DNA from: Armatimonadota bacterium
Lineage (GTDB): Bacteria; Armatimonadota; UBA5829
DNA length: 64,000 nucleotides
NCBI GenBank assembly: GCA_012522575.1
Contig: JAAYKE010000067.1
Span: 383-64,382 of the forward strand
Direction of reading: 5' to 3'
Shown: positions 3,760-47,877 of the stretch, one piece after another
How the letters are laid out: every line of letters begins with the position of its first letter
Position numbering within the stretch: the stretch's first letter is position 1
Notes under the pieces: generated by a model
Databases searched by the model: none
Told to the model about the DNA's origin: nothing
What the model saw: the letters and a program-made list of their open reading frames with translations, nothing else
Made by a program: the position numbers and the translations under genes

Positions 3760-3861
3760 TGGCGACCTCCCGCATTAGCGCAATTCAAGTGGGACTGCAC
3801 AGCTATGGCAAGTCTACCATAGCATCCCAACATTCTCAAGCACGACCCGGCTGCGTAAAAG

Positions 3862-4150
3862 CTCACGAGTGATGATATCTAGAGGTTGGAGGTTGGAAGT
3901 TAGAGGTTAGACAAGACGGTATCTCAATTCGTTCGAAATGACACAGCTTGCCTGGCTGGGACAGAGACCAGCCACTACGGTTTAGAGGTTGGAAGTTAGA
4001 GGTTAGAGGTTGGGAATGGGGTGGCGATACCGGCTCGAACTTCGGACATCTGACCTCGGACATCGAAAAAAGCAGATTTCTCGCTGCGCTCGAAATGACA
4101 TAGTATATGTGGCTGGGACAGAGGCCAGCCACGACCACTCACGAAGAGTG
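3862..4150. repeat. Composite MITE-like intergenic repeat, copy A. Contains two heptamer arrays (TAGAGGTTGGAGGTTGGAAGTTAGAGGTTAGA...) and a conserved core GGCGATACCGGCTCGAACTTCGGACATCTGACCTCGGACATCGAAAAAAGCAGATTTCTC..CGAAATGACA, bounded by GCTCACGAGTGAT / CACTCACGAAGAGTGAG termini
   Basis: Near-identical sequence blocks recur at 18807-19078 (inverted), 47968-48088 (inverted, partial) and 63003-63365 (two tandem units). ORF-track entries 3863..4138-, 3996..4187- and 4010..4381+ are artefacts of this repeat. Confidence 0.8.
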
Positions 4151-4161
4151 AGTTATTACGT

Positions 4162-5127
4162 TCAGGGTTTTTTCTTGTTGCTCTCACGAGGAGTGCTGTA
4201 TAGAGGAACGCTCGCGCTTGATCGAACCAGCGCCCAGGTGGTGATGCCGTCTTTATCCTGCACGATATCCTTGCCGATAGCCGTAATTATCAGCATCACG
4301 CTCGATGATCCCTTGAAAACTCCTGCAGGTATGGTGTTCGTAACTATATGCGGCGGGATGAGCACGCCATATTTTATATAATCCGCCAGATCCGAAGAGC
4401 TTACCGGCCTGTTTTCTATATTATGCGCAAGATCGGGTTTTGCGCTCGATGTCCACGTGATGGTTCTTTTTTGATTGCCTCCGTATGCTCTGAGAATATA
4501 GCCCACCGCACCCGGTACTGGCATCCATTTCAGCGAAATCGGCTTTTCCAGATCGTGCTGCGCGGCGGTGGTGATATTGATCGGAGGAAGAAAGTTTTGG
4601 TCACTGGTCAACTCCACCGAGGTAGCTCCGCAGTAGGTTGTATTCAATTTATATGCGCCCTCAAGTTTAGCGGTATCCTCGTATGCTTTCGGATCGATTG
4701 CCGGCCAGAATGCGAACGATTTATCGGGAATAATTTGCTGGGCTTCGCTTTCCACATTTTTGTCGGAACCGGTTATTTTTGGCTGATCGGCTGCTATGCT
4801 TCGCCCGCTTCCCCAATATTCTCTAAGCTCAAATTTGGCTGTTTCGGGCTTGGCTGCGGAGCTGTTTGCGGAATCTATAGTCAGCTTGACTTCATTGCCG
4901 ACCCCGAGCGCAGCCGGGACGACCACGCTGGCTTTGGCTGCGCGATCGGCGGGCATATCGGAGGCAAGTTCTATATGCAGCGACCTGAAGGCCAATGGCT
5001 TGCCGGCTTCTCCTGTTTCGGGGACCGACGGAAAGAAAAGCCTCGATGTGGTTATGGTTATTACAAACAGAGTTTTGAGTAAAGTCAATTGAAATGCTCC
5101 TTTAGTGCGCACAACGCTTGCAGTCAC
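4162..5127 (-). CDS. Hypothetical secreted protein
   Basis: 321-aa ORF with a hydrophobic N-terminus. No recognisable family. Confidence 0.45.
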   Translation of the reverse strand: MTASVVRTKGAFQLTLLKTLFVITITTSRLFFPSVPETGEAGKPLAFRSLHIELASDMPADRAAKASVVVPAALGVGNEVKLTIDSANSSAAKPETAKFELREYWGSGRSIAADQPKITGSDKNVESEAQQIIPDKSFAFWPAIDPKAYEDTAKLEGAYKLNTTYCGATSVELTSDQNFLPPINITTAAQHDLEKPISLKWMPVPGAVGYILRAYGGNQKRTITWTSSAKPDLAHNIENRPVSSSDLADYIKYGVLIPPHIVTNTIPAGVFKGSSSVMLIITAIGKDIVQDKDGITTWALVRSSASVPLYSTPRESNKKKP

Positions 5128-5417: not shown

Positions 5418-7673
5418 TTATGGATTGGGCGATCCCTGATAATATATCACGCCGGTCGGATCGCTCATCCGTATCCCATAATCCGACCCGCTCGGCAATT
5501 CCGAACATATTCCGGAAACAGATACATAAGAGCCGATTTCCGCATCTGCGGCGCAATCGCCGAATACGGTGACACGCAGGCCGGCATCCAATTCAAATCC
5601 GCCGGGCAATATATCGCGCACGACTCCCCACACTTTCGTAAGCAATCCAAGTTCAAGTGGTTTGCCGACTCCGAAGAAAGGACGTGTAAGCCCGAACGGT
5701 CGCAGAGCACAGTTGCCGTGCACCGAGATGCTTCCCGCAGATATGTCAACCGCTGCCACGCCGCAATGAGTTTTCTTGACACCACGCAGACGAATAACAT
5801 TCCCCGGCGCAAGATCACTGGCTCCCAGGATGGCAATTGCAGGTATGCGATTCGACGCGCAACCGTAACAGACATCCTCAAAGGTCGCAGTAACAATCAC
5901 CTCATCTACATCGACTTCGCTGCCTTCAGGCAGGGCGATCACATCCGCGATGCTTTGCCCGGAAACCTTGCGTATGGTCAGTGTGCGATAGTTGTTGTCG
6001 AATGGAAGATCGGCCACCGTGAAGAATCTATTGCGCTCAGCCGTAACATAGCCCGACGTTATGGCTTGGCCGGTGGCAGTATCGGTCAGCGAATATGCAA
6101 GACGCTGGCCGGCTGCAAAGCTGAAATTCTGAAGCCTGCGCGCCGAGACATCGGCAGTAGGGGATCTTCCGGCGACGGTGTATTTGATATCCGCCGCCCA
6201 TTTGTCCTCAGTGTCGGAGATTATGCGCCAGTCGTACCCGGCATTCATCTGCCCGATGCTGTCGCCGTTTATCGGATCCCCGTTGCCGGGATCGTCATTG
6301 ACCGAGGAATTGCTTATGGCGGGGTAGCTCTGGTTTCTCCTGTGCTTGTTATATATGTCCCAGTTGACGAATTCGGACGGCAGTCCTGTCGAGCTGCTTA
6401 CGTGGCCACCCTGGCCCCAGGCAGCCATAAACCCGTGCCTGTTGGCGTTGAGATTTTTGTAGAATTGGGGAACCTGGAACCACGGCAGCGTCTCGTCATT
6501 TTTGGAATTCTGCACTTTTATAAACGGCAGGTCACAGCAATTGTCGGCCACGTAGGCGGTTGTATTTTGTCGATCCCATACGCCTGCGCCGTCATTTGTC
6601 GGCAAGTTGTCCTGCACCGATCCCCAAATATGCGTAAGTTGACTCTGTGACCACCCGATGCCCTCAAGACCCGGATTGACCTGCGGAACAGTTGCGCTGA
6701 TGGCGGCGAAAAGGTCGGGATGTCTGAGGCCAAAGGAAAGCGCGCCCGTTGCGCCCATAGAACCACCTGCCACGCTGACCCTGTCCGGGTCGATCGGAAA
6801 CGCCGACTTTGCCCACTGCAGCATATTGAGCAACATGTTCTCGGTGTAGTTGAATACGATCCCTGAACCAGCATTTGGGTAGCCGTTGGCATACCCATAC
6901 CACCACGTATTGCCGCCATAAGGAAGCTTTGGGGAGCAGTCCATAGGGGAGACTATAATAATATTCCACCAGGTCGCAATCCTGTTGCAGCCGTTTATTG
7001 CGTGCAGATTCAGCACTGTGGAATACAGCCCGGACAGGTTTGGCTTGGGAAGGGTGACGGTCACTTTGGTAGCTTCGCCGTCAAAAGCGGTCTCATCGGC
7101 TCGTTTGAACCACGTATAGGTCTTCCAGGGATAGTCATATCCCGAAATCGTTTGCACCCCTTGTTCATCGAGCGCCGGAACCGCAGGGCCGGACTCCTCG
7201 CTGATCGGCGCGGCAAGGCTGTTTTGCCCAATCGTGATTTCGCAATCTTCGTATCCGTCGGGATTGACGCCCGTGACGGCGTAATAGCGGGATGCCGATT
7301 GAGTGACTGTCATAACTTTCAAACAGTCAGCCGGGTTCAAAGGCTCGGCAAGGTCGAAGATTCTATATCCCCTGTTTGGGTCTTGCTTATTTTGCCTTGT
7401 TGCGGCCGAGGTTGCCGCCGCATCCTTTGCGCTGTGCAATGGAGAGTTGGATTCCACTAATTCGGCAAATGCCAGGGAAGAGCTGTCGATCGGGCTGCTG
7501 CTGCGATAGATATTGTAGCCGACATACTGCGTATCCGGATCGGACCAATGCAAAAACACCTGCCCGCCGCGGCAGAAAGCGTTTTCTATAACGATATCAG
7601 CGCAACACCCTGCCGACATGCCCAATAATATCGATAGCGTTGCTATGATCAGAACAATGTGCTTAAACGTCAT
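5418..7673 (-). CDS. Secreted alpha/beta-hydrolase-fold protein (esterase/peptidase-like) with a C-terminal beta-rich domain
   Basis: GGSMGATGALSFGLRHPDLFAA matches a GxSxG nucleophile elbow. The likely start is the internal Met (MTFKHIVLIIATLSILLGMSAGC signal peptide) rather than the track start at 7748. Confidence 0.6.
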   Translation of the reverse strand: MTFKHIVLIIATLSILLGMSAGCCADIVIENAFCRGGQVFLHWSDPDTQYVGYNIYRSSSPIDSSSLAFAELVESNSPLHSAKDAAATSAATRQNKQDPNRGYRIFDLAEPLNPADCLKVMTVTQSASRYYAVTGVNPDGYEDCEITIGQNSLAAPISEESGPAVPALDEQGVQTISGYDYPWKTYTWFKRADETAFDGEATKVTVTLPKPNLSGLYSTVLNLHAINGCNRIATWWNIIIVSPMDCSPKLPYGGNTWWYGYANGYPNAGSGIVFNYTENMLLNMLQWAKSAFPIDPDRVSVAGGSMGATGALSFGLRHPDLFAAISATVPQVNPGLEGIGWSQSQLTHIWGSVQDNLPTNDGAGVWDRQNTTAYVADNCCDLPFIKVQNSKNDETLPWFQVPQFYKNLNANRHGFMAAWGQGGHVSSSTGLPSEFVNWDIYNKHRRNQSYPAISNSSVNDDPGNGDPINGDSIGQMNAGYDWRIISDTEDKWAADIKYTVAGRSPTADVSARRLQNFSFAAGQRLAYSLTDTATGQAITSGYVTAERNRFFTVADLPFDNNYRTLTIRKVSGQSIADVIALPEGSEVDVDEVIVTATFEDVCYGCASNRIPAIAILGASDLAPGNVIRLRGVKKTHCGVAAVDISAGSISVHGNCALRPFGLTRPFFGVGKPLELGLLTKVWGVVRDILPGGFELDAGLRVTVFGDCAADAEIGSYVSVSGICSELPSGSDYGIRMSDPTGVIYYQGSPNP

Positions 7674-11969: not shown

Positions 11970-12929
11970 CTATCCCGTAGCGTAGCTGTGCAGACCCTGG
12001 AAGAAATATGTTACTCCAAGGAACGTGAAAATCGTCGCGCCAAAGCCGATTATCGCAAGCCAGGCCGATTTGCGCCCCCGCCAGCCCATAGTAGTGTGAG
12101 TATGCAGATAGGTAGCGTAGATAAGCCACGTGATGAGCGACCAGGTCTCTTTAGGATCCCATCCCCAATATCGGCCCCATGCGATCTGCGCCCATACAGC
12201 CCCTATCACGACCAGCAGCGTCTGCATCAGAAATCCAAACGCCACGGTGCGATATATCGATCTATCCAGCAATTTGGCCGCCGGCAGCCTGCTTATCCAG
12301 AACGATGTTTTAGCGGCCTTTTCATCGGCGGCGGTGCGTAAATCGGCCCTCTCGCGCAGCAGATACATTATCGCCAGCACAAAAGCGACCATCGACGCGC
12401 CATAGGCCAGAATCCCGCTGACAATGTGCGGAGTCCGCCAGGCGCTTTGCAAAGCGGGCATTACGCTGCTGTCTATCTTTGCGTTCGGCAGCCTCATCGC
12501 AAACAGCACAAATGCCGACATCAGAGGCACACAAAAGCCTCCCAGCGACCAGTTTTTCGTCAGCAACTCCACCGCAAGATAGACCAGCGTCGCAGCCCAC
12601 GTAAAGGACAGCATATACTCATACAAATTGAGCAGAGGCAGCCTGCCTATCACAATCGAAATCACCACAATGGAGGCGGTGTGCAAAGCAAAAGCCGCAT
12701 ACAAAAACACTCGACCCAGACGAGCGTCGCTCGCCCGGTTTTGTATCAATGCCTTGAGATAACAGGCCGCTGAGACCAGGTATATCCAAAACGAAAACTT
12801 GAAGAGGCTCAGCCCCAGTTGTTCGGTCATAATCAGATTGATCCTCCGTGCTGCACTAAGATATTGATTCGCGCAGACGCTTGAAGTCCTTTTCAAATAT
12901 AGACGGCTCCGCTCTTGAAGTGGCTCCAA
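11970..12929 (-). CDS. ccsA: Cytochrome c-type biogenesis protein CcsA/ResC (System II)
   Basis: 319 aa, polytopic, with WGWDPKETW haem-handling WWD motif and conserved His residues. Confidence 0.8.
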   Translation of the reverse strand: MEPLQERSRLYLKRTSSVCANQYLSAARRINLIMTEQLGLSLFKFSFWIYLVSAACYLKALIQNRASDARLGRVFLYAAFALHTASIVVISIVIGRLPLLNLYEYMLSFTWAATLVYLAVELLTKNWSLGGFCVPLMSAFVLFAMRLPNAKIDSSVMPALQSAWRTPHIVSGILAYGASMVAFVLAIMYLLRERADLRTAADEKAAKTSFWISRLPAAKLLDRSIYRTVAFGFLMQTLLVVIGAVWAQIAWGRYWGWDPKETWSLITWLIYATYLHTHTTMGWRGRKSAWLAIIGFGATIFTFLGVTYFFQGLHSYATG

Positions 12930-14307
12930 TGGCGACTTTGGATCCGTCAGCGGCTCCCGATATGCTGATTCTTATGGTTTTGCGTGTCACATAAAACGAC
13001 ATAAACAAGCCCAGCACCATCAAAATAAACCCGGCATAGATAGCCGGCAGCCCCGGATTGCGGGCGACTTGCAGGCCGGTATAGCTGACCACATTATCGA
13101 GCGTTATGGTCAGGTCCTGGTGTTTGACGGACTGCGACACCGGAACCCATCCAATCTTCCGCCATGCGTCCAGCCCTTTATATTCTGGGAATCGGTCGTT
13201 GAGCATCACGTTTACTGCGACGTTAACGGGCAGCAGGCTCCTGTTAAGCTCCGATCCGCCGACGTAATCCGGGACCAGATCGTGGACAAACAGGGTCCAT
13301 TTCTTGCCGTCAAGGGTGAAAGTCTTGAACGGCTCCTCGGCGATCTGATAGATTTTTGCGCCGCCGCGATCCTCAACGCCGATCTCAAACGGAATACGGG
13401 CAACGCCGCCATCTGCCGTCGTCACCTTGATCGTAAGCCCCGCAAGGCCGTAATCGCTTTGGTAGAATGTCATGCCTTTATATGACAGCGGATGATTGAC
13501 GTCGATGATTTTTTGCGCGACTGGTTTGCCTTCGTCATATATCTGCAAATCGCTGCGATAGGCCGTGGGATTGCCCTTGCCGTCGTGTTTAATTTCGAAT
13601 TTTCGGAGAGCCACCTCGAAGCCGAGCGGTTTTGAGGTATTGCTTTTACTCGGAAAATAGCCGTTTACGCGCTCGCCTTCCACGATGATGACGCCTCCGT
13701 CGGTTCCGACGATTCCTCCGAATATCGCGCCAATGAATATGACAAGAATGCTGAGGTGCGTAAGATACGGTCCCCAGATCGCAGCCCAGCCCTTTGATGC
13801 GTAGATCGACACTGTGTCTTCGTCGGATTGGCTCAACGGCTTATATGAACACTGTCTAAGCGCCGAGACAAGCTTTTGCGCGGCCAGGTCAGCCGAACAG
13901 GCAGACTCCACTTCCTCGGATACGGACATCCGGGCAACGGCCTTTGCGTCAGTCTCAACATTTGGGCTAAAAGTGCGTTTCCACGCCAGTCCAAACCTGT
14001 TGATGCTGCATACCGCGAGGTTGACCCCAACCATAGCAAGCATAGCCGAAAACCACGGCGTGTGATAGATTATGGCTCCCCGTTTGTCCTCGAGGACCGT
14101 GCCCAGCACCGAGACCAAAGCAAGCAACAGCAACAGCCCAATGGCCGTTTTCATCGAACTGAAAAAACTCCAGAACGCTTTTAACAACAGCCCAATGGCC
14201 ATTTTTGTAGAACTGAAAAAACTCCGGAACGCTTCCAAGGCTCCTGTTTCTTTGCGCTCTTCAGCGGTCGGCTGATCTCCATCATCGCGCAGGTCGATGT
14301 CACTCAC
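12856..14307 (-). CDS. resB: Cytochrome c biogenesis protein ResB/Ccs1 (System II), with an in-frame N-terminal tandem duplication
   Basis: 483 aa with ResB-type N-terminal TM (LLLLALVSVLGTVL) and a large periplasmic domain. Nucleotides ~14130-14240 are a 2x ~54-bp tandem repeat giving FRSFFSSTKMAIGLLLKAFWSFFSSMKTAIGLLLL. Confidence 0.75.
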   Translation of the reverse strand: MSDIDLRDDGDQPTAEERKETGALEAFRSFFSSTKMAIGLLLKAFWSFFSSMKTAIGLLLLLALVSVLGTVLEDKRGAIIYHTPWFSAMLAMVGVNLAVCSINRFGLAWKRTFSPNVETDAKAVARMSVSEEVESACSADLAAQKLVSALRQCSYKPLSQSDEDTVSIYASKGWAAIWGPYLTHLSILVIFIGAIFGGIVGTDGGVIIVEGERVNGYFPSKSNTSKPLGFEVALRKFEIKHDGKGNPTAYRSDLQIYDEGKPVAQKIIDVNHPLSYKGMTFYQSDYGLAGLTIKVTTADGGVARIPFEIGVEDRGGAKIYQIAEEPFKTFTLDGKKWTLFVHDLVPDYVGGSELNRSLLPVNVAVNVMLNDRFPEYKGLDAWRKIGWVPVSQSVKHQDLTITLDNVVSYTGLQVARNPGLPAIYAGFILMVLGLFMSFYVTRKTIRISISGAADGSKVAIGATSRAEPSIFEKDFKRLRESIS

Positions 14308-18772: not shown

Positions 18773-18806
18773 CGCAGCGGTCGGACCCATCCGCCGTAAC
18801 AACCGA

Positions 18807-19078
18807 CTCTTCGTGAGTGATAGCAGTGACAGGTCTCTGTCCCAGTCACACAAACTATGTCATTTCGAACGAAGTGAGAAATCTGCTTTCCGTAAATCGC
18901 GAAAGCTCGAAGGAAGCGAAACCCAGAAAAGAGAAGGGAAAAGCAGATTCCTCAGCACTTGCCTCGGAATGACAATTTACTTGGCGCATTTAAGTGTTGT
19001 AGGTAGCTGGCATCTGTCCTAGCCCAGTCCGAGACGGAGATCGGACACTACGGACAGGATTACTGATCATTCGTGAGC
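18807..19078. repeat. Composite MITE-like repeat, copy B (inverted relative to copy A; lacks heptamer arrays but carries two TGTCATTTCG / GAAATCTGCTTTT core units and the GTCCGAGACGGAGATCGGACAC block)
   Basis: The termini CTCTTCGTGAGTG and GATCATTCGTGAGC match the termini of copies A and D. Track ORF 18813..19022+ is an artefact. Confidence 0.75.
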
Positions 19079-19153
19079 TGTTACTATCCGCCTGTTCCCT
19101 TGACACTATTTTTAGCGCGGAGTTTAATATTGATGACAGTCGTGAGTCGAACA

Positions 19154-26790: not shown

Positions 26791-29700
26791 ATGAACAGGA
26801 TGCAACTCAGCCGAATATGGATTATTTCGTGCTTGATAGCAGTATTTCTGATTTTCTCGGCAGGCTTGACCTGCGCGCAGAATATTACGATCTCAGGCAC
26901 GGTTCGCACTGTGACGGGGACAGGCGTCGGCAGTATAACGATAAGGGCAAGCAACGGCCAGACGACAAGCACAACCGTCGACGGCACGTATAGCCTCAGT
27001 TTGCCCGGCGGCTGGAGCGGGTCCATCGCTCCGGAGGGACAATACCTGATGCAGCCTCAAAGACATGAATACAACAACGTCACTACCAATATAACCGACC
27101 AGGATTTTGTAGCATCTCCCAAGCTGTATATGCTTTACAGCAACTCTTTAACCGCCGTTAAGCAAGGCGATATAGCAAGCGGAGACTTCAATGGCGACGG
27201 CAAAATGGACATCGTCGTTGCCGGCCTCGAACACGACAAAAAAACCGGCAATCTCGTGCCATCTGCGAATATATGGCGCAACGAGGGAGCGTCCGGTTTT
27301 ACTCAACTTGTGGCGGGCTTGACCGGGGTTAAGAATCCCGCGCTGGCCTGGGGGGACTATGACAACGATGGCAAGCTCGACGTGATCATCACGGGCGACA
27401 CCGGATCTGCCCTGGTAACCAGGCTCTATCGCAACGATGACAATTCGTGGCCGGTTGTAACTGAGGCTGTTCTGCCCGGGGTTAAACACGGGGATATTGC
27501 CTGGGCGGACTTCGATAACGACGGCAAACCGGATCTGTTGATAGCAGGGGAGGCTGCGTCAGGACGAATAACTAAGCTATTTCGCAACAATGGAGACGGC
27601 TCATTTACTGAACTGGGCGTCTCTGGGCTGCCCGGCGTATCGCAATGCTCTGTTGCGTGGGCGGACTTCGATAATGACGGTCGAATGGATTTCGCCATAG
27701 CAGGCAACTCGGACAGCGGCCCTGTCACAAAGATATTTCGCAACGACGGCGCAGGACAGTTTTCTGATATAAACGCCGGGCTAACGGGAGTCGGCTCGGC
27801 TTCGATAAGCTGGGGGGATTATGACCACGACGGCCTGCTTGACCTGGCAATCGCCGGTGAGCGCGCCGACTCTGTGAAGATCACCCGCATTTGCCGGAAT
27901 ACCGGATCGGGATTTGATGAACTGGACCTCGGCTTGCCCGGCGTCACAGGGACGATAATGTGGGGGGATTATAACAACGACGGACATTTGGACCTGGCCC
28001 TGGCGGGTCCGCAGGGTCCTGCCGAAACCGCCCCTAAAATATGTCATAACAATGGGGACGGCACATTTATCGTCTACCCTATAACCAACAGCGAAATCGG
28101 GCTGTCCGGCCTCAAGATGGTTTGGACCGACTTCAACAAAGATAACAAGCTCGATTTGATATTATGCGCGGAGACCAACGGCTCCTACGCCGGAACACTC
28201 ACATATAATAATGTGACCGCAACCGCAAACACAGCCCCAGGCGCGCCGAGCGGCTTGTCGGCTACATTTGACAACAATACTCTTACCATGTCCTGGAGCG
28301 CCGCCATCGATCCGAACACACCGGCGGACGGGTTGTCTTATAATATCCGAGTCGGAACTTCGCCCGGCGCAGACGATGTATTTTCCGGCATGGCAGACCT
28401 GTCGACCGGGCGCAGGAATGTTCTGGCGCCTGGCAATGCCGGATTTAACCTGACCTGGAAACTATGCAACCTGGTCACGCGCAACTACTATTGGAGCGTT
28501 CAGGCCGTAGACTCCGGGTATATGGCGTCCGCATGGGCTGCCGAGGCTATGGTCAATCCGGACTCCTCTCCGCCTGTCATTGGAATCAGCGCCCCGTCGG
28601 CGTCACTTACCAATGTCGGGCCGGTGAGCTACACAATCACCTACCAGGGTGCGGATTTCGTCACCCTTTCCAACACCGATGTCAGTTTGAATGTCACCGG
28701 CACGGCTAATGGAACCGTCTCGGTAAGCGGGACCGGAACCTCTGCCCGAACCGTGACCATATCCAATATAACCGGCGACGGAACGATAGGCATATCAATA
28801 GCCGCAGGCTCCGCCCGCAATTTCGCTGATGATTATGCGCCGGGAGCAGGGCCAAGCGCGACATTTACCGTAGACAACCTGTCACCTGTTATTAATATCA
28901 GCGCGCCCTCCGCTTCGATTACCCGTCAGGGACCTGTGAGCTACACAATAACATACGACGGATGCGACTCAATCACCCTTGCACAAGGGGATGTGACGCT
29001 CAACAAAACCGGCACTGCCAACGGCACGGTATCGGTCAGCGGAACCGGGCTTGCCGAGCGCACAGTGACCATAGACAATATAACCGGCAACGGCTCTCTG
29101 AGCATCTCAATCGCCGCCGAAACAGGACACAGCACGGCAGGCAACCATACCCCTGCAGTCGGCCCCGGCGATGCATTCGAGGTGGATAATACCCCGCCGG
29201 TAATCGAGATCGGGGAGCCGTCAGCGACAATTACATCCGCCGGCCCGGTGACATTTGAGGTCACCTATTCCGATGCGACCCTGATAACCCTCTCAGAGCA
29301 GGACGTCGTTCTAAACAAGACCGGCACTGCGGACGGCACGGTGTCAGTGACTGGCAGCGACCCCGGCAGCCGAACCGTGACCATATCTGATATCACCGGG
29401 GACGGCGCGCTCGGCATATCCATAAACGCGGGCACCGCTGCCGAAGATCTGGGCAACACGGCCCCTGCCGCCGGTCCAAGCGATACATTTGACGTTGACA
29501 ACACCGCTCCGAGTTTGACGATAGGTGAGCCTTCGGAGGAAATCACCCGCGCAGGGCCGGTAACCTTCGAAATCACTTATAACAACGCGGACTCCGTGAG
29601 CCTTTCCGATGAGGACATAACCCTGAATTTGACCGGCACGGCACAGGGCACGGCATCGGTCTCAGGCACGGGTTTGACCGATCGCACGGTTACCATAACT

Positions 29701-30606
29701 GATATAACCGGAGACGGGACCATCTGCATCTCAATAGCGGCAGGGACTGCTGCAGACGATCTGCAAAACCCTGCGGCAGCAGTCGGCCCGAGCGCCACCT
29801 TTGTCGTGGATAACACCGCACCGACGGCCGTAAACCTGTCAGTCGATAAGACTATTACCAATGGCCCGGATGTTATTGCAACATTCGACGGATCGACCGA
29901 TGCCAACGGAGTCAGCTATGAACTTAAGGTCAATGACGGTGACTACGAGGCCGCGACCAGCCCAAGCCGGGTAGTGCCGCTCAAGTTCGACGATGGCGTT
30001 CATACCATATATGTGAGAGCGCTGGACCCTGCAGGCAACGTCGGCCCTGCAGCCAGCGCACAGTTCACCTACGACAAGACTCCGCCTCAAATCTTGTCGT
30101 TCAGCTACAGCCCGTCACTGGTATCGGCGGGAGATATGATGGCGGCCAGAGTCGAGGCGACCGACAACTTCGAGGTTGTCAACGTAATCGCCGATGGAGT
30201 CTACCTGACTAAGGGCGATGACGGCGTATGGACGGGCAATGTGGTGACCGCGGAGGCTCTGGGAAGCCATACGGTCTATGTGCTTGCCTACGACGAAGCC
30301 GGCAACTCCGGATCCGTTGGCTGGACCTATAAAACCGCACGCGCAGTAGGATTAACCAACCGCGCACTGACCGACCCGATTATATCTGCGGCTTCGGATA
30401 AGTTCGTCTTCACGGTATGGGGAAGAGTCACCGTGACCGGAGATCCGAACAACTTCCTCGTCGACGACGGGTCAGGCAAGTTCATTAAGGTTCACTACAA
30501 AAACCACAACCTCAGCAACACCGACTACGTTTCAGCTAGAGGCGCGGTCGATGTCAGCTCAAATCCGCCGACGCTGAACGCTTATGTCGTGAAACGGCAT
30601 AACTGA
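26791..30606 (+). CDS. Large secreted surface protein: signal peptide, seven FG-GAP/VCBS-like repeats (integrin-type beta-propeller), a fibronectin-III domain, four tandem ~105-aa repeats, and C-terminal Ig-like domains
   Basis: Repeated GDFNGDGKMDIVVAG / GDYDNDGKLDVIITG / ADFDNDGKPDLLIAG motifs. Near-identical 315-nt repeats span ~28570-29825. Confidence 0.75.
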   Translation: MNRMQLSRIWIISCLIAVFLIFSAGLTCAQNITISGTVRTVTGTGVGSITIRASNGQTTSTTVDGTYSLSLPGGWSGSIAPEGQYLMQPQRHEYNNVTTNITDQDFVASPKLYMLYSNSLTAVKQGDIASGDFNGDGKMDIVVAGLEHDKKTGNLVPSANIWRNEGASGFTQLVAGLTGVKNPALAWGDYDNDGKLDVIITGDTGSALVTRLYRNDDNSWPVVTEAVLPGVKHGDIAWADFDNDGKPDLLIAGEAASGRITKLFRNNGDGSFTELGVSGLPGVSQCSVAWADFDNDGRMDFAIAGNSDSGPVTKIFRNDGAGQFSDINAGLTGVGSASISWGDYDHDGLLDLAIAGERADSVKITRICRNTGSGFDELDLGLPGVTGTIMWGDYNNDGHLDLALAGPQGPAETAPKICHNNGDGTFIVYPITNSEIGLSGLKMVWTDFNKDNKLDLILCAETNGSYAGTLTYNNVTATANTAPGAPSGLSATFDNNTLTMSWSAAIDPNTPADGLSYNIRVGTSPGADDVFSGMADLSTGRRNVLAPGNAGFNLTWKLCNLVTRNYYWSVQAVDSGYMASAWAAEAMVNPDSSPPVIGISAPSASLTNVGPVSYTITYQGADFVTLSNTDVSLNVTGTANGTVSVSGTGTSARTVTISNITGDGTIGISIAAGSARNFADDYAPGAGPSATFTVDNLSPVINISAPSASITRQGPVSYTITYDGCDSITLAQGDVTLNKTGTANGTVSVSGTGLAERTVTIDNITGNGSLSISIAAETGHSTAGNHTPAVGPGDAFEVDNTPPVIEIGEPSATITSAGPVTFEVTYSDATLITLSEQDVVLNKTGTADGTVSVTGSDPGSRTVTISDITGDGALGISINAGTAAEDLGNTAPAAGPSDTFDVDNTAPSLTIGEPSEEITRAGPVTFEITYNNADSVSLSDEDITLNLTGTAQGTASVSGTGLTDRTVTITDITGDGTICISIAAGTAADDLQNPAAAVGPSATFVVDNTAPTAVNLSVDKTITNGPDVIATFDGSTDANGVSYELKVNDGDYEAATSPSRVVPLKFDDGVHTIYVRALDPAGNVGPAASAQFTYDKTPPQILSFSYSPSLVSAGDMMAARVEATDNFEVVNVIADGVYLTKGDDGVWTGNVVTAEALGSHTVYVLAYDEAGNSGSVGWTYKTARAVGLTNRALTDPIISAASDKFVFTVWGRVTVTGDPNNFLVDDGSGKFIKVHYKNHNLSNTDYVSARGAVDVSSNPPTLNAYVVKRHN

Positions 30607-30626: not shown

Positions 30627-30651
30627 CAGGCCGGGTGACGTCCCCGGCCTG
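30627..30651. terminator. Bidirectional hairpin between the convergent giant-protein and STAS genes (CAGGCCGGG-N7-CCCGGCCTG)
   Basis: Perfect 9-bp GC-rich stem. Flanking U-tracts are weak, so its terminator role is tentative. Confidence 0.35.
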
Positions 30652-30652
30652 T

Positions 30653-31024
30653 CTACCATCCCGGATTTCCGACTTCCGCTATCGCCTCGTCTGCGGTCTC
30701 ATAGCGTTTGAACACACCTTCTGCGCCGGAAAGAACGAGGATTCTTTCCAGCAACCCGTGCGCACCCACAATGCAGGCTCCTCGTCCGGTATCCTTGAGG
30801 GCCTTTTGCACGGAAGAGAGAGCGCTCAGGCCGGTAGCATCGATATAAGACAGCAAATGAGCGTCAAAAAGAATGCTGCGGTTTCCGTTTATTACTTCCT
30901 TGAGGTCGGCAAGCAGCAGCGTGACGCCCGCGGTATCCAGTTCGCCGCATAGGTAGACGATTGCCACCGGCGCATCGTCGAGGGTTGATATCCAGGTTGT
31001 AAAAGCGTCATCGTTGGGCATCAT
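30653..31024 (-). CDS. STAS-domain protein (anti-sigma factor antagonist, SpoIIAA-like)
   Basis: 123 aa with a STAS fold pattern (DLSGVTYIDSSG-like: LSYIDATGLSAL). Confidence 0.65.
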   Translation of the reverse strand: MMPNDDAFTTWISTLDDAPVAIVYLCGELDTAGVTLLLADLKEVINGNRSILFDAHLLSYIDATGLSALSSVQKALKDTGRGACIVGAHGLLERILVLSGAEGVFKRYETADEAIAEVGNPGW

Positions 31025-31909: not shown

Positions 31910-32035
31910 ACTACTGATAAAGGCAAACCTCGGGAAACCGGGGGGCGCAAAGCTATCGGGACTAAGCCGGGCAGCAAGGGTGGTCCATAAAATACCCGTT
32001 CTGAATGCCGCCACGGTATGTTGGCCGAGCCGCCG
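31910..32035 (+). promoter_or_regulatory. Candidate c-di-GMP-I (GEMM) riboswitch aptamer in the 5' leader of the small ORF / URO-D-family gene
   Basis: AAGGCAAACC-UCGG-GAAA-CCGG-GGGGCGCAAAGCUAUCGGGACUAAGCCGGGC is near-colinear with the Vibrio Vc2 core GGGCAAACC-AUUC-GAAA-GAGU-GGGACGCAAAGCC. It contains a GNRA-capped P1 hairpin and a CUAAG tetraloop-receptor-like element. It lies ~160 nt upstream of the ATG at 32194. Confidence 0.5.
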
Positions 32036-32193
32036 AAGTAGGAGTTGCCCGTGACCAGAGACTGTCGGATTCAGACTATCCGGCGAAAGGCCCAGATACT
32101 ATGGGCTGGCCAAATGCGGCGGTCTTTGATCTCAGGCGATTCGCCTTAGGTGGCTCGGCTTCTTTGCATTACCGTTATTTGGAGGCGAAGAAA

Positions 32194-32388
32194 ATGTTTA
32201 TTCCCGAAGCAAAGAACTACCTTGGCAAAGACTGCGCAGTCACTTTCAGTGACAGACACGGAAAGGTGCATACCCAAACCCTGCACATCCACGACGTGAG
32301 CTTCGTGCCGATGTATGGCGCGTGTTTAGTCGGCGATATCGACGACATCTGGCTTGATCGGGTGACCAAAATCACCGCTGTAGTGTAG
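32194..32388 (+). CDS. Small hypothetical protein (64 aa) with a strong RBS
   Basis: GGAGG 8 nt upstream of ATG gives MFIPEAKNYLGKDCAVTF.... The longer track ORF 32005..32388 would start inside the putative riboswitch. Confidence 0.4.
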   Translation: MFIPEAKNYLGKDCAVTFSDRHGKVHTQTLHIHDVSFVPMYGACLVGDIDDIWLDRVTKITAVV

Positions 32389-40830: not shown

Positions 40831-42015
40831 CTAGCTCGGCAGACCCAGATATCCCCTGATCCACTCCTCGTCAGGCTTGATAATCTGCCCGCTCACCAGT
40901 TTTCCGATGACCTCCGCAAGCCCGGCGACATCCGCATCCTCCAGCGGCCCAAGGCTGAAGGTTGGATAGGATTTTGTCGAGAAATTGAAGTCAACCAGAC
41001 GCTTTATGACCTGCTCACGCATGACGGCTTCCTCAAGGTCGCGTTTGAGCTTATGCAGGCACATCTTGAGCACGTCGAGATGCACCTTTGCGAGCGCGTA
41101 GCTGCCCACTCGAATGCCCTCGTCGGTCATCAGCGTCTGGCAGAGAATTGCGCGGGATATCTGCTTGTCGTGCCATTCGATGGCCTGCAAATACCCCGAT
41201 TCCCCGCCACGTCCGGCCTCCAGCAGTTCCACCTGCACGTCATCCGGGATGACGATGGCGGTCTGCTGCTGAATCTTGTCCAGCACTCGCAGCAGTTCTT
41301 CCTGCGCCTGCTTCGGAGTTCCGCGCTTGTAGGAGCCTTTAGCGGTCGGGGAGCCGTGCTTCTCCAGATACAGATTCATAAACCGGGTGAGCACGTCTTT
41401 GCTCCAATAGTGCTTATATGCGGCGCGCAGATCCGATGTGCCGTAGGGGGATTCATACCTGGGCATGTGCGAATATATCACGAACTTATCCGATGGAAGC
41501 GTCCGCTCGACCGAGGCTGTCCCCGTCCGCTTCAACGCCCGCACGTTCATAAACTCATCGACCTCAAAGGAAAAAGTCGACGGGTCCTTTGCCTTTATGG
41601 AAGCGATTCCCACGCGACCTTTATGGGGGCCGTCCTCGAAAATGCTATAGTTGATTTCCAGTATGGAAAAGCCCTTTGCCAGCGCATCGAGCACATTGTA
41701 TAGCACGGTCAGTATCGAGCCGCGCATATCCGCCAGCGCAAAACGCACGAAGTCCGCGACCTCCACATCCTGCGGATCGCGCGTCGCCGGGTGCACCTCC
41801 CATCCGTGCGATAAAACCGCAAGTTTTTTGATAGTCAAACACGCCTGCACCTGAGCGTCGCGCTGCATTTGTTCATATATTGCATAACCTCTTCTGCCGA
41901 TCAGGTCATCGGGGTTGTATGAGTCGATATCGTTAATCAAAGACCCGGCAGCGGCCGTCTCATTCAGCCCGGGAGAACGCCGCTTGCTGAACCGGGAAAG
42001 CAGTGGAATCTTCAT
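40831..42015 (-). CDS. Phage portal protein (DUF935 / Mu gp29-like)
   Basis: 394 aa with a DUF935-like pattern, located immediately downstream of terL. GAGGTG RBS. Confidence 0.55.
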   Translation of the reverse strand: MKIPLLSRFSKRRSPGLNETAAAGSLINDIDSYNPDDLIGRRGYAIYEQMQRDAQVQACLTIKKLAVLSHGWEVHPATRDPQDVEVADFVRFALADMRGSILTVLYNVLDALAKGFSILEINYSIFEDGPHKGRVGIASIKAKDPSTFSFEVDEFMNVRALKRTGTASVERTLPSDKFVIYSHMPRYESPYGTSDLRAAYKHYWSKDVLTRFMNLYLEKHGSPTAKGSYKRGTPKQAQEELLRVLDKIQQQTAIVIPDDVQVELLEAGRGGESGYLQAIEWHDKQISRAILCQTLMTDEGIRVGSYALAKVHLDVLKMCLHKLKRDLEEAVMREQVIKRLVDFNFSTKSYPTFSLGPLEDADVAGLAEVIGKLVSGQIIKPDEEWIRGYLGLPS

Positions 42016-42066
42016 AAAACACCTCGGGTTTGGACGTTGGAAATTGGTTGTTGGAAGTTGGGCGGT

Positions 42067-43386
42067 CTACCAGCTTTGCCTTGCCATTCTGCCGGCCTGA
42101 CTCAAATATGCGGAATTGTGCGCAAACCCTTCGGTCTGTTTGCAGGCCAGCGCGAGGGCGATCACCAGGTCGTCGTTGATACCGACCCTGCCGTTCATAC
42201 GCACATTGCCGGAGGCGGTCAGCTCGTATTCATAATATTGAAGCTCCCGCAGAAGCTGCTCGTCGGGTAGAATGGTGATCGAACGGTGCGCGAACTTGAG
42301 GGACAAATGCTCTATCAGATCTCGTTTGGATCGGTTTGAGAATGTATAGCCCTCCACCGCCACATCGATGCCGAAGTCCCATAACCTGGCGCGAAGCTGT
42401 TCGAGCAGGGGATCCCCTATCGAAGTAGAATCGGCGAGCGCGCAACTCACTCGATGGGTTTTGAGGAACTGCGCAACCCTTGTGATCTGGCTGTCCCAGC
42501 CCATTTTATTGAACCTGTCGATGCCGATTATGTGGCAGCCGCGTTCATCCGATACCATCGCGACCACGGCGGTATAGTCCGAATATCTCGCCCAGTCTAT
42601 TCCCGCCACCACCACGCCGTCCGCGTCCGCTGCGTGCGAATCGGAGACCGCCGCCTCGATGTCCTCCCATGCAAAAACGCAGTTGGAATCGTCGATAAAC
42701 TGCGCCTCATATTCCACCGCAAACTGCCTCGGACTGATCTCCTGCCGCTGAGTTTCGATATATTGACGACTTATATGCGGGTTTGCCCACGATGGAAAGT
42801 TGAATGACCGGCACGCCGCGCCGTCATCAGACCCTGCGCCCCTCATAAATGCGCGATAGAAATGATTCCTGCCAAATGGAGTGCTGATCATAACCAGCCG
42901 ACCGTTGCGATCGGCAAGCATAGGGGAAATGACCTCGCTTATAACGGAGTCCCGAACAAACGCGGCCTCATCGACTATCACCCTGTCTGCGGAATGTCCG
43001 CGCAGATTGCGCCCATCCTCATCGGCGGTGCGCGCCATTATCAGGCTGCTGCCGAGAGCAAGCCTCGGATAGGGAGTGCGCGTGATTTTGGTGATGCCGC
43101 GAGTGAGCCGCGAGCCTGTCATCAGTCGTTCGATATGATCGAAGATGAGCCTGGATTGATCGTAAGTCGGGGAGACTATGATCTGCTTTGAGCCGGGATG
43201 CAAAATGGCGAGGGTGGCGGCGTCCACCGCGGCGGCCTCGGTTTTACCCCATCGACGCCCGCAGGATGCCACCTTAACTCCCGCATCGGTCAGCAGCCAT
43301 TTCTTCTGTGTTTCGTGCGGTTTCCATCCCCAGATATGATCGGCCAGCGTCAGGCGAACCGATGAATCAGTCCCCGCGGGCATTGT
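42067..43386 (-). CDS. terL: Phage terminase large subunit
   Basis: Walker A CGRRWGKTEAAA plus a C-terminal RNaseH-like nuclease region. The start was set to the internal Met (MPAGTD), and the gene overlaps terS. Confidence 0.75.
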   Translation of the reverse strand, partial: TMPAGTDSSVRLTLADHIWGWKPHETQKKWLLTDAGVKVASCGRRWGKTEAAAVDAATLAILHPGSKQIIVSPTYDQSRLIFDHIERLMTGSRLTRGITKITRTPYPRLALGSSLIMARTADEDGRNLRGHSADRVIVDEAAFVRDSVISEVISPMLADRNGRLVMISTPFGRNHFYRAFMRGAGSDDGAACRSFNFPSWANPHISRQYIETQRQEISPRQFAVEYEAQFIDDSNCVFAWEDIEAAVSDSHAADADGVVVAGIDWARYSDYTAVVAMVSDERGCHIIGIDRFNKMGWDSQITRVAQFLKTHRVSCALADSTSIGDPLLEQLRARLWDFGIDVAVEGYTFSNRSKRDLIEHLSLKFAHRSITILPDEQLLRELQYYEYELTASGNVRMNGRVGINDDLVIALALACKQTEGFAHNSAYLSQAGRMARQSW

Positions 43387-43744
43387 CGCCCTCCGTTTTG
43401 TCGTGAATGGCTTTGACCATATCGACCAGAGCCGCCCCGGGATCCTCACTTTCGGCATCGAAAACCCCGCTCACTTTAAGCACATCGACGAGAACCTTGG
43501 TGTCCGGTTTGTCCGGATTGGACGCCAACTGACACAGCCGAGCGGCCGAGTTCACCACTGCCTGCCGCGCTATCCTTTTGGCCCCGAGTTCCTGCTCACG
43601 CTCACGAACCCTCAAAGCGCGCGCAAAACGATCCGATTCCATCCAACCTCTTAAAGTAGAAAGACGCACCCCGATCATTTCAGCCACAACCGTATCGGGA
43701 TGACAAAGAAGCAACTCGATTGCATCACGATGTTTAGCCCTCAT
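43367..43744 (-). CDS. Putative terminase small subunit / HTH DNA-binding protein
   Basis: 125 aa with an HTH (VAEMIGVRLSTLRGWM), directly upstream of and overlapping terL. AGGAGG RBS. Confidence 0.45.
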   Translation of the reverse strand: MRAKHRDAIELLLCHPDTVVAEMIGVRLSTLRGWMESDRFARALRVREREQELGAKRIARQAVVNSAARLCQLASNPDKPDTKVLVDVLKVSGVFDAESEDPGAALVDMVKAIHDKTEGDNARGD

Positions 43745-46208: not shown

Positions 46209-46227
46209 TGCCGATCACCTGGATATT

Positions 46228-47001
46228 TTACGGAATCGACTCTATCGGGTCGTCGGTGACCTTGCGCAGGGTTCGAGCATCTATGCGCTCCACCCCGTCT
46301 TTGAGCCTGGCCTCGCAGAAATCCGAGCGATAGAGTTGCAATATGATCTCCATCGGCATTGTAACCTTATAGGGCTTGACTTTGCCGACCAGAGCCATCG
46401 ATTTGCGGGCTGCTTCTCTGATCAGGTTGCGGGCTTCGTCGATGTCGATGCAATCAGCGCGATTTCTTCCAACGCCTTTTTTCACGGTCGCGGTTTCGAT
46501 ATTGCCGAAAAACTGCCTCGCCTCCACGCACGCCGCCTCATCTCCGCTCACCATAATCACCGGCACATCGTAGCTGCCCGTGACCAGGCCCCATCGACCA
46601 ATCTCCCCTGTATTTCGACCATTTATGGAGTAGTTGTACCACTCCCTCGAATTTTGCGTATGATCCAGAAACCCGTTGATAGTGCCCGCCATCGCGTGCG
46701 CGCCTACGAAGAACGTGCCGCTGTAGCTGCCGTCTATTTTCCGCTGTCTTTTTTTATTTGTCCTGGGATCGTGCTCCGCTCTGCTATCAAGCAGTTCCTC
46801 GATGAAGTTGCTGCCGCCGCCGTGTCCGTCACGCACCGTCACATGCGTAGCTCCGCCCTCGAAAGCCCCTTCTACAGCCGCGTTCAAATCTCCCATCAGC
46901 AGTTCGCAGCACTCGCGGAAACGATCGCCGTCCCGCTGAATCATCTCAAAAGAATCGATTCCCGTTATTCCTTCGAGGTCGGTCATAATATAGATTTTCA
47001 T
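46228..47001 (-). CDS. M55 family metallopeptidase (D-aminopeptidase DppA-like), cytoplasmic paralog
   Basis: MKIYIMTDLEGITGI N-terminus is typical of DppA/M55. Confidence 0.7.
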   Translation of the reverse strand: MKIYIMTDLEGITGIDSFEMIQRDGDRFRECCELLMGDLNAAVEGAFEGGATHVTVRDGHGGGSNFIEELLDSRAEHDPRTNKKRQRKIDGSYSGTFFVGAHAMAGTINGFLDHTQNSREWYNYSINGRNTGEIGRWGLVTGSYDVPVIMVSGDEAACVEARQFFGNIETATVKKGVGRNRADCIDIDEARNLIREAARKSMALVGKVKPYKVTMPMEIILQLYRSDFCEARLKDGVERIDARTLRKVTDDPIESIP

Positions 47002-47016
47002 TGTATCACCTGCAAT

Positions 47017-47877
47017 TTACGGAAACAGTTCCAGCGGGTCGCTTGTTATTTTCCGAACAGTGCGCGCATCTATGCGCTCGATTCCGTCTTTGAGCCTTCC
47101 TTCGCAGAAATCCGCCCGGTTAAGCTCCAATACGACCTCCATAGGCATGGTAACTTTATACGGCTTAACTTTGCCAACCAGAGCCATCGACTTTCGTGCG
47201 GCTTCACGGATTCGCTTGCGCGCTTCGTCGCTGTCGATGCAATCCGCGCGATTTCTCCCAATGCCTCTTTTGACAATGGCGGTTTCCACGTGGTTAAAAA
47301 ACTGCCTCGCCTCGACACAAGCCGCCTCGTCTCCGCTCACCATAAGCATAGGCACATCGAAGTTGCCTGCTACCAGCGCCCACATGCCAAGCTCCCCGGT
47401 CTTGCGGCCATTGATGTAGTAGTTATACCAATGCAGGGACGACTGAGTATGATCGAGAAAACCATTGATAGTGCCCGCCATCGCGTGCGCGCCGATAAAA
47501 AACGTGCCGCAGTAGCTGTCGTCGAGCTTGCCCCACCATTTTTTATTGGTTTTGAGATCGTTATCCGCCCTTTTATCGAGCAGATCGAGCACAAAATTGC
47601 CGCCGCCGCCGTGGCTGTCCAGCACTGTTACGTGCGTAGCTCCGCCCTCAAAGGCGCCTTCTATGGCCGCATTGAGATCGCCCATCAGAAGCTCGCAGCA
47701 CTCGCGATACTGCTTGCTGTCTCGTTGGATCATTTCGAAGGAATCGATGCCGGTGATCCCTTCGAGATCGGTGTGAATGTAGATTTTCATGTCCTTTGGC
47801 TGCTCTTTCTGAGTAGTTGCGCAAAAGCCGCACATGGGAATGGCAAGGATGCAGAGTAAAGCAAATAATGATTTCAT
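47017..47877 (-). CDS. M55 family metallopeptidase (DppA-like) with an N-terminal signal peptide; tandem paralog of the previous gene
   Basis: ~75% identical core to 46228..47001 plus MKSLFALLCILAIPMCGFCATT signal peptide. Confidence 0.7.
   Translation of the reverse strand: MKSLFALLCILAIPMCGFCATTQKEQPKDMKIYIHTDLEGITGIDSFEMIQRDSKQYRECCELLMGDLNAAIEGAFEGGATHVTVLDSHGGGGNFVLDLLDKRADNDLKTNKKWWGKLDDSYCGTFFIGAHAMAGTINGFLDHTQSSLHWYNYYINGRKTGELGMWALVAGNFDVPMLMVSGDEAACVEARQFFNHVETAIVKRGIGRNRADCIDSDEARKRIREAARKSMALVGKVKPYKVTMPMEVVLELNRADFCEGRLKDGIERIDARTVRKITSDPLELFP

Follow-up and report, generated by a model that had tools for sequence, protein, structure and literature searches.

Intergenic mosaics of tagged REP-type hairpins and inverted heptamer arrays in an Armatimonadota bacterium

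We analysed a 64,000-nt stretch of the genome of an Armatimonadota bacterium (GenBank assembly GCA_012522575.1, contig JAAYKE010000067.1, positions 383 to 64,382; hereafter the window), in which an earlier reading of the sequence alone had described composite repeats at four intergenic loci, here A to D, as resembling miniature inverted-repeat transposable elements (MITEs). A modular, hairpin-rich, non-coding intergenic family does exist at these loci. Its copies are not versions of one consensus; they are composed of about eight short modules in a recurring order, among them hairpins assigned to the GTAG-tagged repetitive extragenic palindromes (REPs), hairpins that appear to fit the CGTC/TGTC-tagged REPs, and inverted arrays of heptamers. 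We favour, with a probability of roughly 0.62, the reading that the loci are intergenic mosaic clusters of these modules, comparable to bacterial interspersed mosaic elements (BIMEs) and Neisseria intergenic mosaic elements (NIMEs), that were spread and rearranged at the DNA level. The case for it lies in the anatomy of the modules, covariation within the hairpins, their distribution across genomes, polymorphism at orthologous sites and the association of one hairpin with GIY-YIG genes in other organisms.

The window is chromosomal, has ~53% G+C and carries genes for a glycoside hydrolase, ThuA, WecG and HSP70/DnaJ as well as a terL-portal cluster. One flanking protein is 100% identical to an anaerobic-digester protein recorded as 'MAG: ... 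[Armatimonadetes bacterium]' (MAG, metagenome-assembled genome), and the next-nearest relatives are Armatimonadota MAGs with 84–87% protein identity. All four loci, and every motif that had been quoted from them, are present in the window sequence. Related loci are designated below by L numbers; L004, L010 and L129 are those used most.

The modules are as follows. The two end modules are TL (consensus CGTAAYAACTCACGAATGAT) and TR. Between them lie the G-array of G-strand heptamers, (GGTTRGA)n; the loop, a short stretch with GGCGAT; the 'core'; a purine-rich linker; the box, an A-run followed by GCAGATTTCTC-NCTNCGN-TCGAAATGACA; and the hairpins REP-a and REP-b, the latter reading GTAG-Y-GGCTGG-YCTCTGTC-CCAGCC on the opposite strand. 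With limits refined for all four elements, the features of the window are:

3854–4160 (+): element A, complete; TL, G-heptamers, degenerate box, REP-b, G-heptamers, core, box, REP-b and TR; its right end is 1 nt from the stop codon of open reading frame (ORF) 4162–5127 (−)
3854–3873 (+): TL end module of A, CGTAAAAGCTCACGAGTGAT, with the 13-nt inverted repeat CGTAAYAACTCAC that it has in common with TR
3880–3911 (+): G-strand heptamer array (GGTTRGA) in A, ~4.6 units
3915–3943 (−): degenerate TGTC-tagged box hairpin in A
3954–3978 (−): REP-b in A, GTAG-T-GGCTGG-TCTCTGTC-CCAGCC
3982–4014 (+): second G-strand heptamer array in A
4035–4066 (+): core in A, the C-strand heptamer array TCGAACTTCGGACATCTGACCTCGGACATCGA
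4072–4100 (−): box in A, the TGTC-tagged hairpin TGTCATTTCGAGCGCAGCGAGAAATCTGC; box sequence AGATTTCTCGCTGCGCTCGAAATGAC of A is identical in L004
4111–4135 (−): second REP-b in A, tag degenerated to GTCG
4138–4160 (+): TR end module of A, CTCACGAAGAGTGAGTTATTACG, itself a small hairpin (CTCAC/GTGAG)
18796–19085 (−): element B, complete, flanked by an ATCCGCC direct repeat; on the + strand the order is TR (reverse complement), REP-b, box, purine-rich linker, second box (reverse complement), degenerate REP-b, REP-a (reverse complement) and TL (reverse complement)
18858–18886 (+): box in B, TGTCATTTCGAACGAAGTGAGAAATCTGC, head-to-head with the variant box at 18943–18974, tags outward
18943–18974 (−): variant box in B with ATTCC/GGAAT arms, TGTCATTCCGAGGCAAGTGCTGAGGAATCTGC; this arm type is also found in metagenomes
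19000–19051 (members on opposite strands): head-to-head GTAG REP pair in B, tags outward, of a degenerate REP-b (+, 19000–19026) and REP-a (−, 19027–19051)
42021–42061 (+): heptamer-array remnant in the terL-portal spacer
47968–48088 (−): element C, one unit, with G-heptamers at 48031–48073, loop, and core at 47978–48009; bounded by the 12-bp repeat TCGCCTTGACTC at 47968–47979 and 48077–48088
48082–48110 (+): promoter-like site TTGACT-N17-TATACT, its −35 hexamer inside the 12-bp repeat of C
63003–63357 (+): element D; TL, REP-a and a truncated REP-b precede two 157-nt units (G-heptamers, core, box, REP-b), of which the second stops after its core; D occupies all the DNA between the stop codons of two convergent genes
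63037–63061 (+): REP-a in D, GTAG-T-GTCCGA-TCTCCGTC-TCGGAC; this 25-mer recurs unchanged in L010 and in three of L129's four REP-a copies
63203–63231 (−): box in D, TGTC-tagged hairpin
63242–63266 (−): REP-b in D, GTAG-C-GGCTGG-CCTCTGTC-CCAGCC

An ungapped alignment of sixteen REP-a and REP-b copies, taken from the window, L004, L010 and L129, defines a hairpin with a 6-bp stem and an 8-nt loop of conserved sequence, YCTCYGTC. Over these copies 97.9% of stem cells are paired, three of the six stem pairs show compensatory double changes (G-C/U-A, C-G/U-A and G-C/A-U), and the observed covariation score was reached by none of 500 shuffles; structures slid by 1–3 columns were only 17–51% paired. 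The stem occurs in three variants (GTCCGA/TCGGAC, GGCTGG/CCAGCC and GGCCGG/CCGGCC), the REP-a and REP-b types differing by three compensatory pairs. A 5′ GTAG tag is found in 12 of the 16 copies, with GTCG, GCAG, a shifted TAGG or ATTG in the others. Pairs of GTAG hairpins stand head-to-head with their tags outward, across a 2-nt gap in B and gaps of 23–25 nt in four pairs of L129.

As criteria for GTAG REPs we took a 20–40-nt stem-loop with a 6–13-bp stem and an unpaired GTAG or degenerate GYRG tag (Di Nocera 2013; Nunvar 2010). Published members have 6–9-bp stems, fall into sub-families with complementary stems, form head-to-head dimers 1–5 or 20–100 bp apart, and occur in clusters reiterated in tandem together with flanking DNA (PMC3733652). 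The hairpins described here agree in stem-loop size, tag, complementary stem sub-families, and head-to-head dimers with tandem clusters, and by these sequence criteria REP-a and REP-b are GTAG-tagged REPs. They likewise resemble the E. coli REP/BIME system and the GTAG REPs and REPINs that accompany REP-associated tyrosine transposases (RAYTs; TnpA-REP, of the Y1 type) in their GC-rich hairpin, unpaired 5′ GTAG and 6-bp stem, in complementary-stem sub-families, head-to-head pairs and tandem clusters with conserved linkers, and in intergenic sites mostly between same-direction or convergent genes (PMC3733652, PMC2817692, PMC3333891). In contrast to those systems, the loop here is long (8 nt) and conserved in sequence, and between the hairpins lie heptamer arrays and hairpins of a second, unrelated class.

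The sequence-only reading had preferred a mobile or RNA-encoding element 'rather than simple REP sequences', a distinction that is not supported: the hairpin modules are of REP type, from two published tagged superfamilies, GTAG and CGTC/TGTC. There are 4–5 REP loci in the 64-kb window and 6–7 in 24 kb of L129; GTAG REPs typically number more than 100 per genome (Di Nocera 2013; Nunvar 2010). Mobilisation of the IS200/IS605 type, by a RAYT, is our leading idea for how the GTAG hairpins would move. Elsewhere in the window, a GTAG-tagged, GC-rich hairpin with a 9-bp stem, GTAGACAGGCCGGGGACGTCACCCGGCCTG, lies at 30627–30656 (−) between the convergent genes 26791–30606 and 30653–31024; it is unlike REP-a and REP-b, and could be a REP standing alone or a bidirectional terminator.

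The second hairpin class is the repeat described earlier as the CGAAATGACA box. Its tag strand reads TGTC-ATTTC-GA-NC-GNA-GN-GA-GAAAT-CTGC (sequence form TGTCATTTCGACCGAAGGGAGAAATCT), with a TGTC tag, a stem of nine positions that begins with AT and includes a tandem G.A/A.G mismatch, and a loop of 3–5 nt. All boxes in the window start TGTC-AT, and L010 also has a compensatory ACTTC/GAAGT box variant. A metagenome scan with the pattern AGATTTCTCNCTNCGNTCGAAATGAC placed the box in at least 120 contigs from many habitats. Among the matches listed, to which all box counts here refer, the free pair of the pattern is Watson–Crick in 126 of 142 boxes (C-G 55, G-C 53, A-T 18) against 25% by chance; the arms are complementary in 242 of 307 GTCATnnC...GnnATC candidates against 1 in 16 by chance; eight arm types occur, including ATTTC, ATTCC, ATCCC, ATTGC and ATCTC; and the base 5′ of GTC is T (75) or C (24) in 99 of 109 partner boxes. 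The pairing rate, the complementarity of the arms and the T or C before GTC show the box to be a conserved hairpin.

Published CGTC REPs often have TGTC as their tag, stems of 8–9 bp that start with AT, short loops of 4–5 nt, an unpaired tail that fits CCA, and head-to-head dimers, and Neisseria dRS3 is a member (PMC3733652). The TGTC-AT start and the stem-loop are found in the box, which would therefore fit this superfamily, including Neisseria dRS3/NTS, with the exception of its tail: CCA follows in only 4 of 107 partner boxes, while the base after ATC is T in 92 of 107 (TT 50, TC 24, TA 10, TG 8), and the window tail is CTGC. Set beside CGTC REPs, the dRS3/NTS of NIME mosaics and the motifs cut by SsnA (PMC3733652, PMC11893778), the box is alike in its (C/T)GTC-AT start, hairpin and ATC tail, in head-to-head pairing, in its place within intergenic mosaics and in flanking small GIY-YIG genes elsewhere. 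It differs in a 9-bp stem with a conserved tandem G.A mismatch (ATTTC-GA-NC / GN-GA-GAAAT), in its CTN tail and in falling outside the search pattern given below.

NTS (CGTCATTCCCGCGMAVGCGGGAATCYRG) is cut as single-stranded DNA, not as double-stranded DNA or RNA, by SsnA, a 94-aa single-domain GIY-YIG nuclease, and NTS-ssnA-NTS arrangements and related motifs (SRM) are widespread (PMC11893778, 2025). Box-flanked GIY-YIG genes of other organisms mirror this arrangement. Among loci retrieved by the box pattern alone, four have a single-domain GIY-YIG gene (PF01541) directly against a box, and these genes are homologous to one another: L122 has a box on either side of the gene with tags outward, L032 has three boxes immediately 3′ of the gene, and in L024 and L096 a C-terminal fragment of the gene ends at a box. 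A GIY-YIG nuclease is the likely partner of the box.

Heptamers make up two further inner modules, the G-array and the core. The conserved 80-nt core claimed for the family is missing from B, and where it occurs it consists of degenerate C-strand heptamers in array, (GGACWTC/TGACCTC)n. Read as its reverse complement, (GAKGTYN)n, the core is similar to the G-array, and its position in a copy of L010 holds ~13 GGACTTC units. Period-7 arrays were detected by TRF at 3880–3911, 3982–4011, 42030–42061, 48031–48073 and 63106–63142; the third of these lies in the 51-nt terL-portal spacer, where a heptamer fragment had been noted before.

Modules favour certain neighbours. TL is followed by REP-a or a G-array; the G-array by the loop and then the C-array core; the core by the A-run and box; the box by REP-b; and REP-b by a G-array or TR. 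This grammar recurs in the window, L010, L129 and L004. The tandem units of ~157 bp reported earlier are recovered by a repeat finder as a 157-nt spacing in A and D, with units of 153–157 nt at 3983–4135, 63114–63266 (92% identity) and 63271–63423 (65%), and the same program recovers the inverted relationships among A, B, C and D. Alternating REPs, conserved linkers, variable composition and tandem reiteration (the 157-nt units and an extra unit in L128) are the marks of a BIME/NIME mosaic. Streptococcus pneumoniae BOX elements, boxA-(boxB)n-boxC, consist of three modules and lack tagged REP hairpins; they are alike in modularity, variable internal unit number and conserved ends, and their sequences are unrelated.

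Intergenic 7-nt tandem arrays are known elsewhere, among them the STRR heptamers of cyanobacteria. The TAACTGA repeats of Beggiatoaceae, Cyanobacteria and Bacteroidetes are comparable as intergenic 7-nt tandem units in variable number (2–13 copies), some of them just upstream of start codons (PMC4679880); here, by contrast, the units are GGTTRGA and GGACWTC, and the arrays form inverted pairs between REP-type hairpins. A scan of a genome collection with a 20-mer of the core returned only three matches, in unrelated phyla, a number close to chance expectation; yet all three lie in array contexts, which is not what chance would give. The matches extend to 22–24 nt (CGGACATCTGACCTCGGACATC) and are found in a Pedobacter genome (L001 7436–7455), a deltaproteobacterial MAG (L002 268–287) and a Pyrinomonadaceae MAG (L003 7923–7942), each surrounded by tandem arrays of 7 or 14 nt; the arrays of L002 and L003 are inverted, and L001 has a G-rich array upstream; a GIY-YIG gene is located ~300 nt from the match in L002. 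Core matches were absent from a viral-contig scan (0 matches). A cross-phylum enrichment of 7–8-nt arrays near the box, 30 of 142 listed matches against 16 of 195 random windows, disappeared when box-free intergenic segments of the same contigs served as control (0.52 versus 0.54 per kb, p = 0.23), and we therefore regard it as an intergenic-versus-coding artefact.

The family is not confined to the window: the same modules occur in L010, L129 and L004, and relatives differ in presence and in copy number, so that its dynamic character is borne out. L010, which shares its metagenome project with one close relative, carries three copies on 6.9 kb, with the TL, TR, REP-a, REP-b, box and arrays of the window. 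L129, a 3.05-Mb contig of the 87% relative, has its 6–7 mosaic loci with the same inner modules and neither TL nor TR. At orthologous sites, the GH127-WecG spacer holds B in the window and only a terminator hairpin with one variant box in L004; the WecG-PfkB spacer is 15 nt in the window and a 246-nt mosaic in L004 that includes an identical box and two REP-b copies whose stems are GGCCGG; and the terL-portal spacer, a 51-nt heptamer array in the window, is a 358-nt mosaic with the same start point in L129 (2907–3264), the window array being orthologous to its first part. Some modules are conserved to 100% between genomes whose proteins are 84–87% identical. A protein search for further copies with a peptide from one of the spurious ORFs gave zero matches.

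Several further observations concern these relatives. They have an extra hairpin, GGYGRYGAT-TCGGAG/CTCCGA-ATCRYCRCC, in both orientations and sometimes in tandem (L004 11895–11925, 12800–12870 and 16960–17084; L129 1530–1560 and 16770–16800), of which the window has only the half-site GGTGGCGAT at 4020–4028. L134 1–130 (LSQX01325183.1) joins A to the TR flank of a different copy, as a chimera or a strain rearrangement, and L010 ends at 6871–6889 in Nextera adaptor sequence, CTGTCTCTTATACACATCT.

We propose the following route to such clusters. The hairpins would extrude in single-stranded DNA, where nucleases of the HUH (RAYT-type) and GIY-YIG (Ssn-type) families, encoded at other places in the genome, could recognise and nick them, and nicking would seed hairpins into intergenic DNA. 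Slipped-strand mispairing in the 7-nt arrays and unequal recombination between modules would then expand, contract and reshuffle the clusters, with tandem units of 121–157 nt as products. We infer that cognate nucleases exist in the genome and drive the spread. Effects on the host, such as structured 3′ untranslated regions and the duplicated −35 box at C, are probably by-products.

Other observations weigh against this interpretation. Searches by tblastn with YafM and IS200 TnpA queries gave no match in the window or in ~200 kb of redundant related loci, and GIY-YIG queries found no such gene in the same sequences; both are weak tests, and the absence of RAYT/IS200-like and GIY-YIG genes there is expected if they are single-copy. 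No box or box variant of the window matches the SRM pattern HGTCWYN(0-2)YYVSBRHN(0-5)WNVSBRGN(0-2)RNCYNB, which the NTS control does match, and the box ends in CTN rather than CCA. The TL/TR inverted repeat and the 7-bp repeat at B are not features of REPs or BIMEs and hint at a MITE-like layer, and no activity demonstrated for these nucleases accounts for how the heptamer arrays arose.

The hairpin classes and the mosaic principle are already known. New are the phylum, a 157-nt unit that combines the two hairpin superfamilies, the regular use of inverted heptamer arrays as modules, and a subtype of the box outside the published Ssn-motif definition. Both tagged REP superfamilies thus occur in Armatimonadota, a poorly studied phylum that receives no mention in the main text of the GTAG/CGTC survey (PMC3733652). 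The box subtype is missed by the published Ssn-target search motif, is abundant in metagenomes and stands beside GIY-YIG genes, which points to new Ssn-like specificities; enzymes of this kind are of practical interest as site-specific cutters of single-stranded DNA. Searches for the box sequences in the full texts of papers returned primer coincidences only. In genome annotation, the elements account for contig breaks in the MAGs of this lineage and for a set of spurious ORFs with shared peptides, reported earlier and seen here too (for example MSEVRCPKFEPVSP). The elements alone do not resolve the origin of REP/BIME clusters.

A bolder extension, which we regard as quite a long shot, is that the box represents a very widespread, unrecognised subclass of Ssn-type targets, put outside the SRM pattern by the conserved tandem G.A mismatch of its stem and fused in this lineage with GTAG (RAYT-type) REPs and inverted 7-nt arrays into composite 157-nt units, that two unrelated nuclease families, HUH and GIY-YIG, act on one mosaic, and that the arrays are by-products of repeated nick-and-repair or of template slippage at the hairpins. 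If so, the recurrence of the identical CGGACATCTGACCTCGGACATC, each time amid arrays, in Bacteroidota, Acidobacteriota and a deltaproteobacterial MAG would reflect the horizontal spread of one module.

Among the alternatives to this mosaic reading, the least unlikely is a classical MITE, in which the whole TL...TR element of ~300 bp would have been moved by a DDE transposase acting on the 13-nt terminal inverted repeat, with a 7-bp target-site duplication, carrying the internal hairpins and arrays as passengers. The termini had been given as CTCACGA(A/G)TGAT-type sequences; A and B do have conserved ends, which are more correctly described by the 13-nt inverted repeat CGTAAYAACTCAC, with 11 of 13 matches in A and 9 of 13 in B. 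Both elements are bounded by TL and TR and are similar in length (307 and 290 nt), TL or TR also occurs in L010, and B, missing from the orthologous L004 spacer, is flanked by an exact ATCCGCC repeat that abuts both of its ends (18789–18795 and 19086–19092). Against this, A has no flanking direct repeat, D has TL without TR, the middle L010 copy has TR without TL, and the inverted repeat is missing from the right end of D, from C and from L129, where all inner modules spread over 6–7 loci without either end. The complete copies A and B combine the same ends with different internal modules and so are not copies of one master, and with A, B and D all differing inside, there is no single consensus of the kind produced by internal deletion of an autonomous insertion sequence.

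The 12-bp direct repeat at C, which had been likened to a target-site duplication, exists but does not support that interpretation. In L128, from the same species and with a 100% identical neighbouring protein, the sequence continues past the repeat into another tandem unit, whose heptamers differ in sequence. The −35 hexamer of the TTGACT-N17-TATACT promoter, which precedes the downstream activase gene in an arrangement conserved in L129, also falls within the 12-mer. Because of the unit junction in L128 and the conserved −35 box, the 12-mer is best read as flanking DNA duplicated within a tandem array, as happens in REP clusters. No DDE transposase turned up among the ORFs examined, which did not amount to a systematic DDE scan of the window, and the RAYT/IS200-type search of the window was negative. 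The family thus resembles MITEs in being small, non-coding and intergenic, in the 13-nt terminal inverted repeat and the one 7-bp flanking repeat, and in presence/absence polymorphism; it differs in its mosaic content, in ends that are missing from some copies and from L129, and in lacking a known parent insertion sequence. We consider transposition as a classical MITE unlikely, although the 7-bp repeat at B, without a counterpart at A, makes a TL...TR MITE-like layer atop the mosaic possible.

A functional reading, in which the elements act as structured RNA (3′-UTR stabilisers, attenuators, terminators or small RNAs) or the arrays as binding sites just upstream of ribosome-binding sites, is rather improbable. 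As RNA, A is predicted to fold with −105.9 kcal/mol on the + strand (z = −4.2) and −85.1 on the − strand (z = −4.0), more stable than shuffles in both cases; as DNA, its + strand has a predicted fold of −42.6 (z = −2.9). In the predicted folds the G-array pairs with the core (3880–3911 with 4035–4066 in A), one end pairs with the other, and every hairpin folds on itself. The hairpins covary, stop codons directly precede A, B and D, and on the tag strand CTGC and a T-run follow the box; in each of these three elements a gene reads into that strand. C/A-rich arrays stand immediately 5′ of ribosome-binding sites in the terL-portal spacer (window and L129) and upstream of hsp20 (L004), and the position of TAACTGA heptamers is similar (PMC4679880).

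A structured-RNA gene, which the sequence-only reading had also entertained, is nevertheless disfavoured on several counts. Rfam 15 gave no match in the elements at the gathering threshold, nor any at E ≤ 10 beyond chance-level snoRNA matches (E = 2.6–8.1), and terminator-like sites were absent both inside the elements and next to them. Copies occur in both orientations relative to the flanking genes, C sits in a divergent promoter region, and the bias among metagenome boxes towards genes that read into the tag strand is weak (48 versus 30 for the 142 listed boxes, with crude ORF calls). Wobble pairs give no strand signal (2 versus 3), and the published partner of the closest known motif binds single-stranded DNA, not RNA (PMC11893778).

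That the repeats are simple-sequence noise or an assembly artefact can be dismissed: several public contigs do break inside elements (L128, L135, L137 and L010), but A, B and D are base-for-base identical in independent same-species assemblies from other samples (A in L132 and L133; B in L136; D in L138 and L139) and so are not assembly artefacts, the modules are conserved across genomes with 84–87% identical proteins, the hairpins carry compensatory changes, and the 20-mer GGACATCTGACCTCGGACAT occurs four times in the window against 0.01 expected from shuffles.

The window has other features of note. A 54-nt tandem repeat (1.9 copies, 90% identity) lies at 14131–14234 in the 3′-coding part of ORF 12856–14307 (−). 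A 300-nt direct repeat with 78% identity, 46227–46526 and 47016–47315, reflects the adjacent paralogous genes 46228–47001 and 47017–47877, the second of which encodes an M55 D-aminopeptidase. A c-di-GMP-I riboswitch aptamer (RF01051, 64.3 bits, E = 2.8e-10) at 31912–32037 (+) overlaps the start of ORF 32005–32388. The pair encoding a terminase large subunit and a Mu-like portal protein (window 40831–43458, L129 1713–4566) has the same housekeeping neighbours in the 87% relative, and this conserved position points to the remnant of an old or domesticated prophage, not to a recent one. Finally, a stretch of low G+C at 52519–54491 (0.478 versus ~0.53–0.55) encodes a SacI-like restriction endonuclease and a D12-class methyltransferase; these genes are present in same-species L128 and missing at the syntenic site of L129, where the ferredoxin gene directly follows the activase gene, and the stretch looks like an inserted restriction-modification island.

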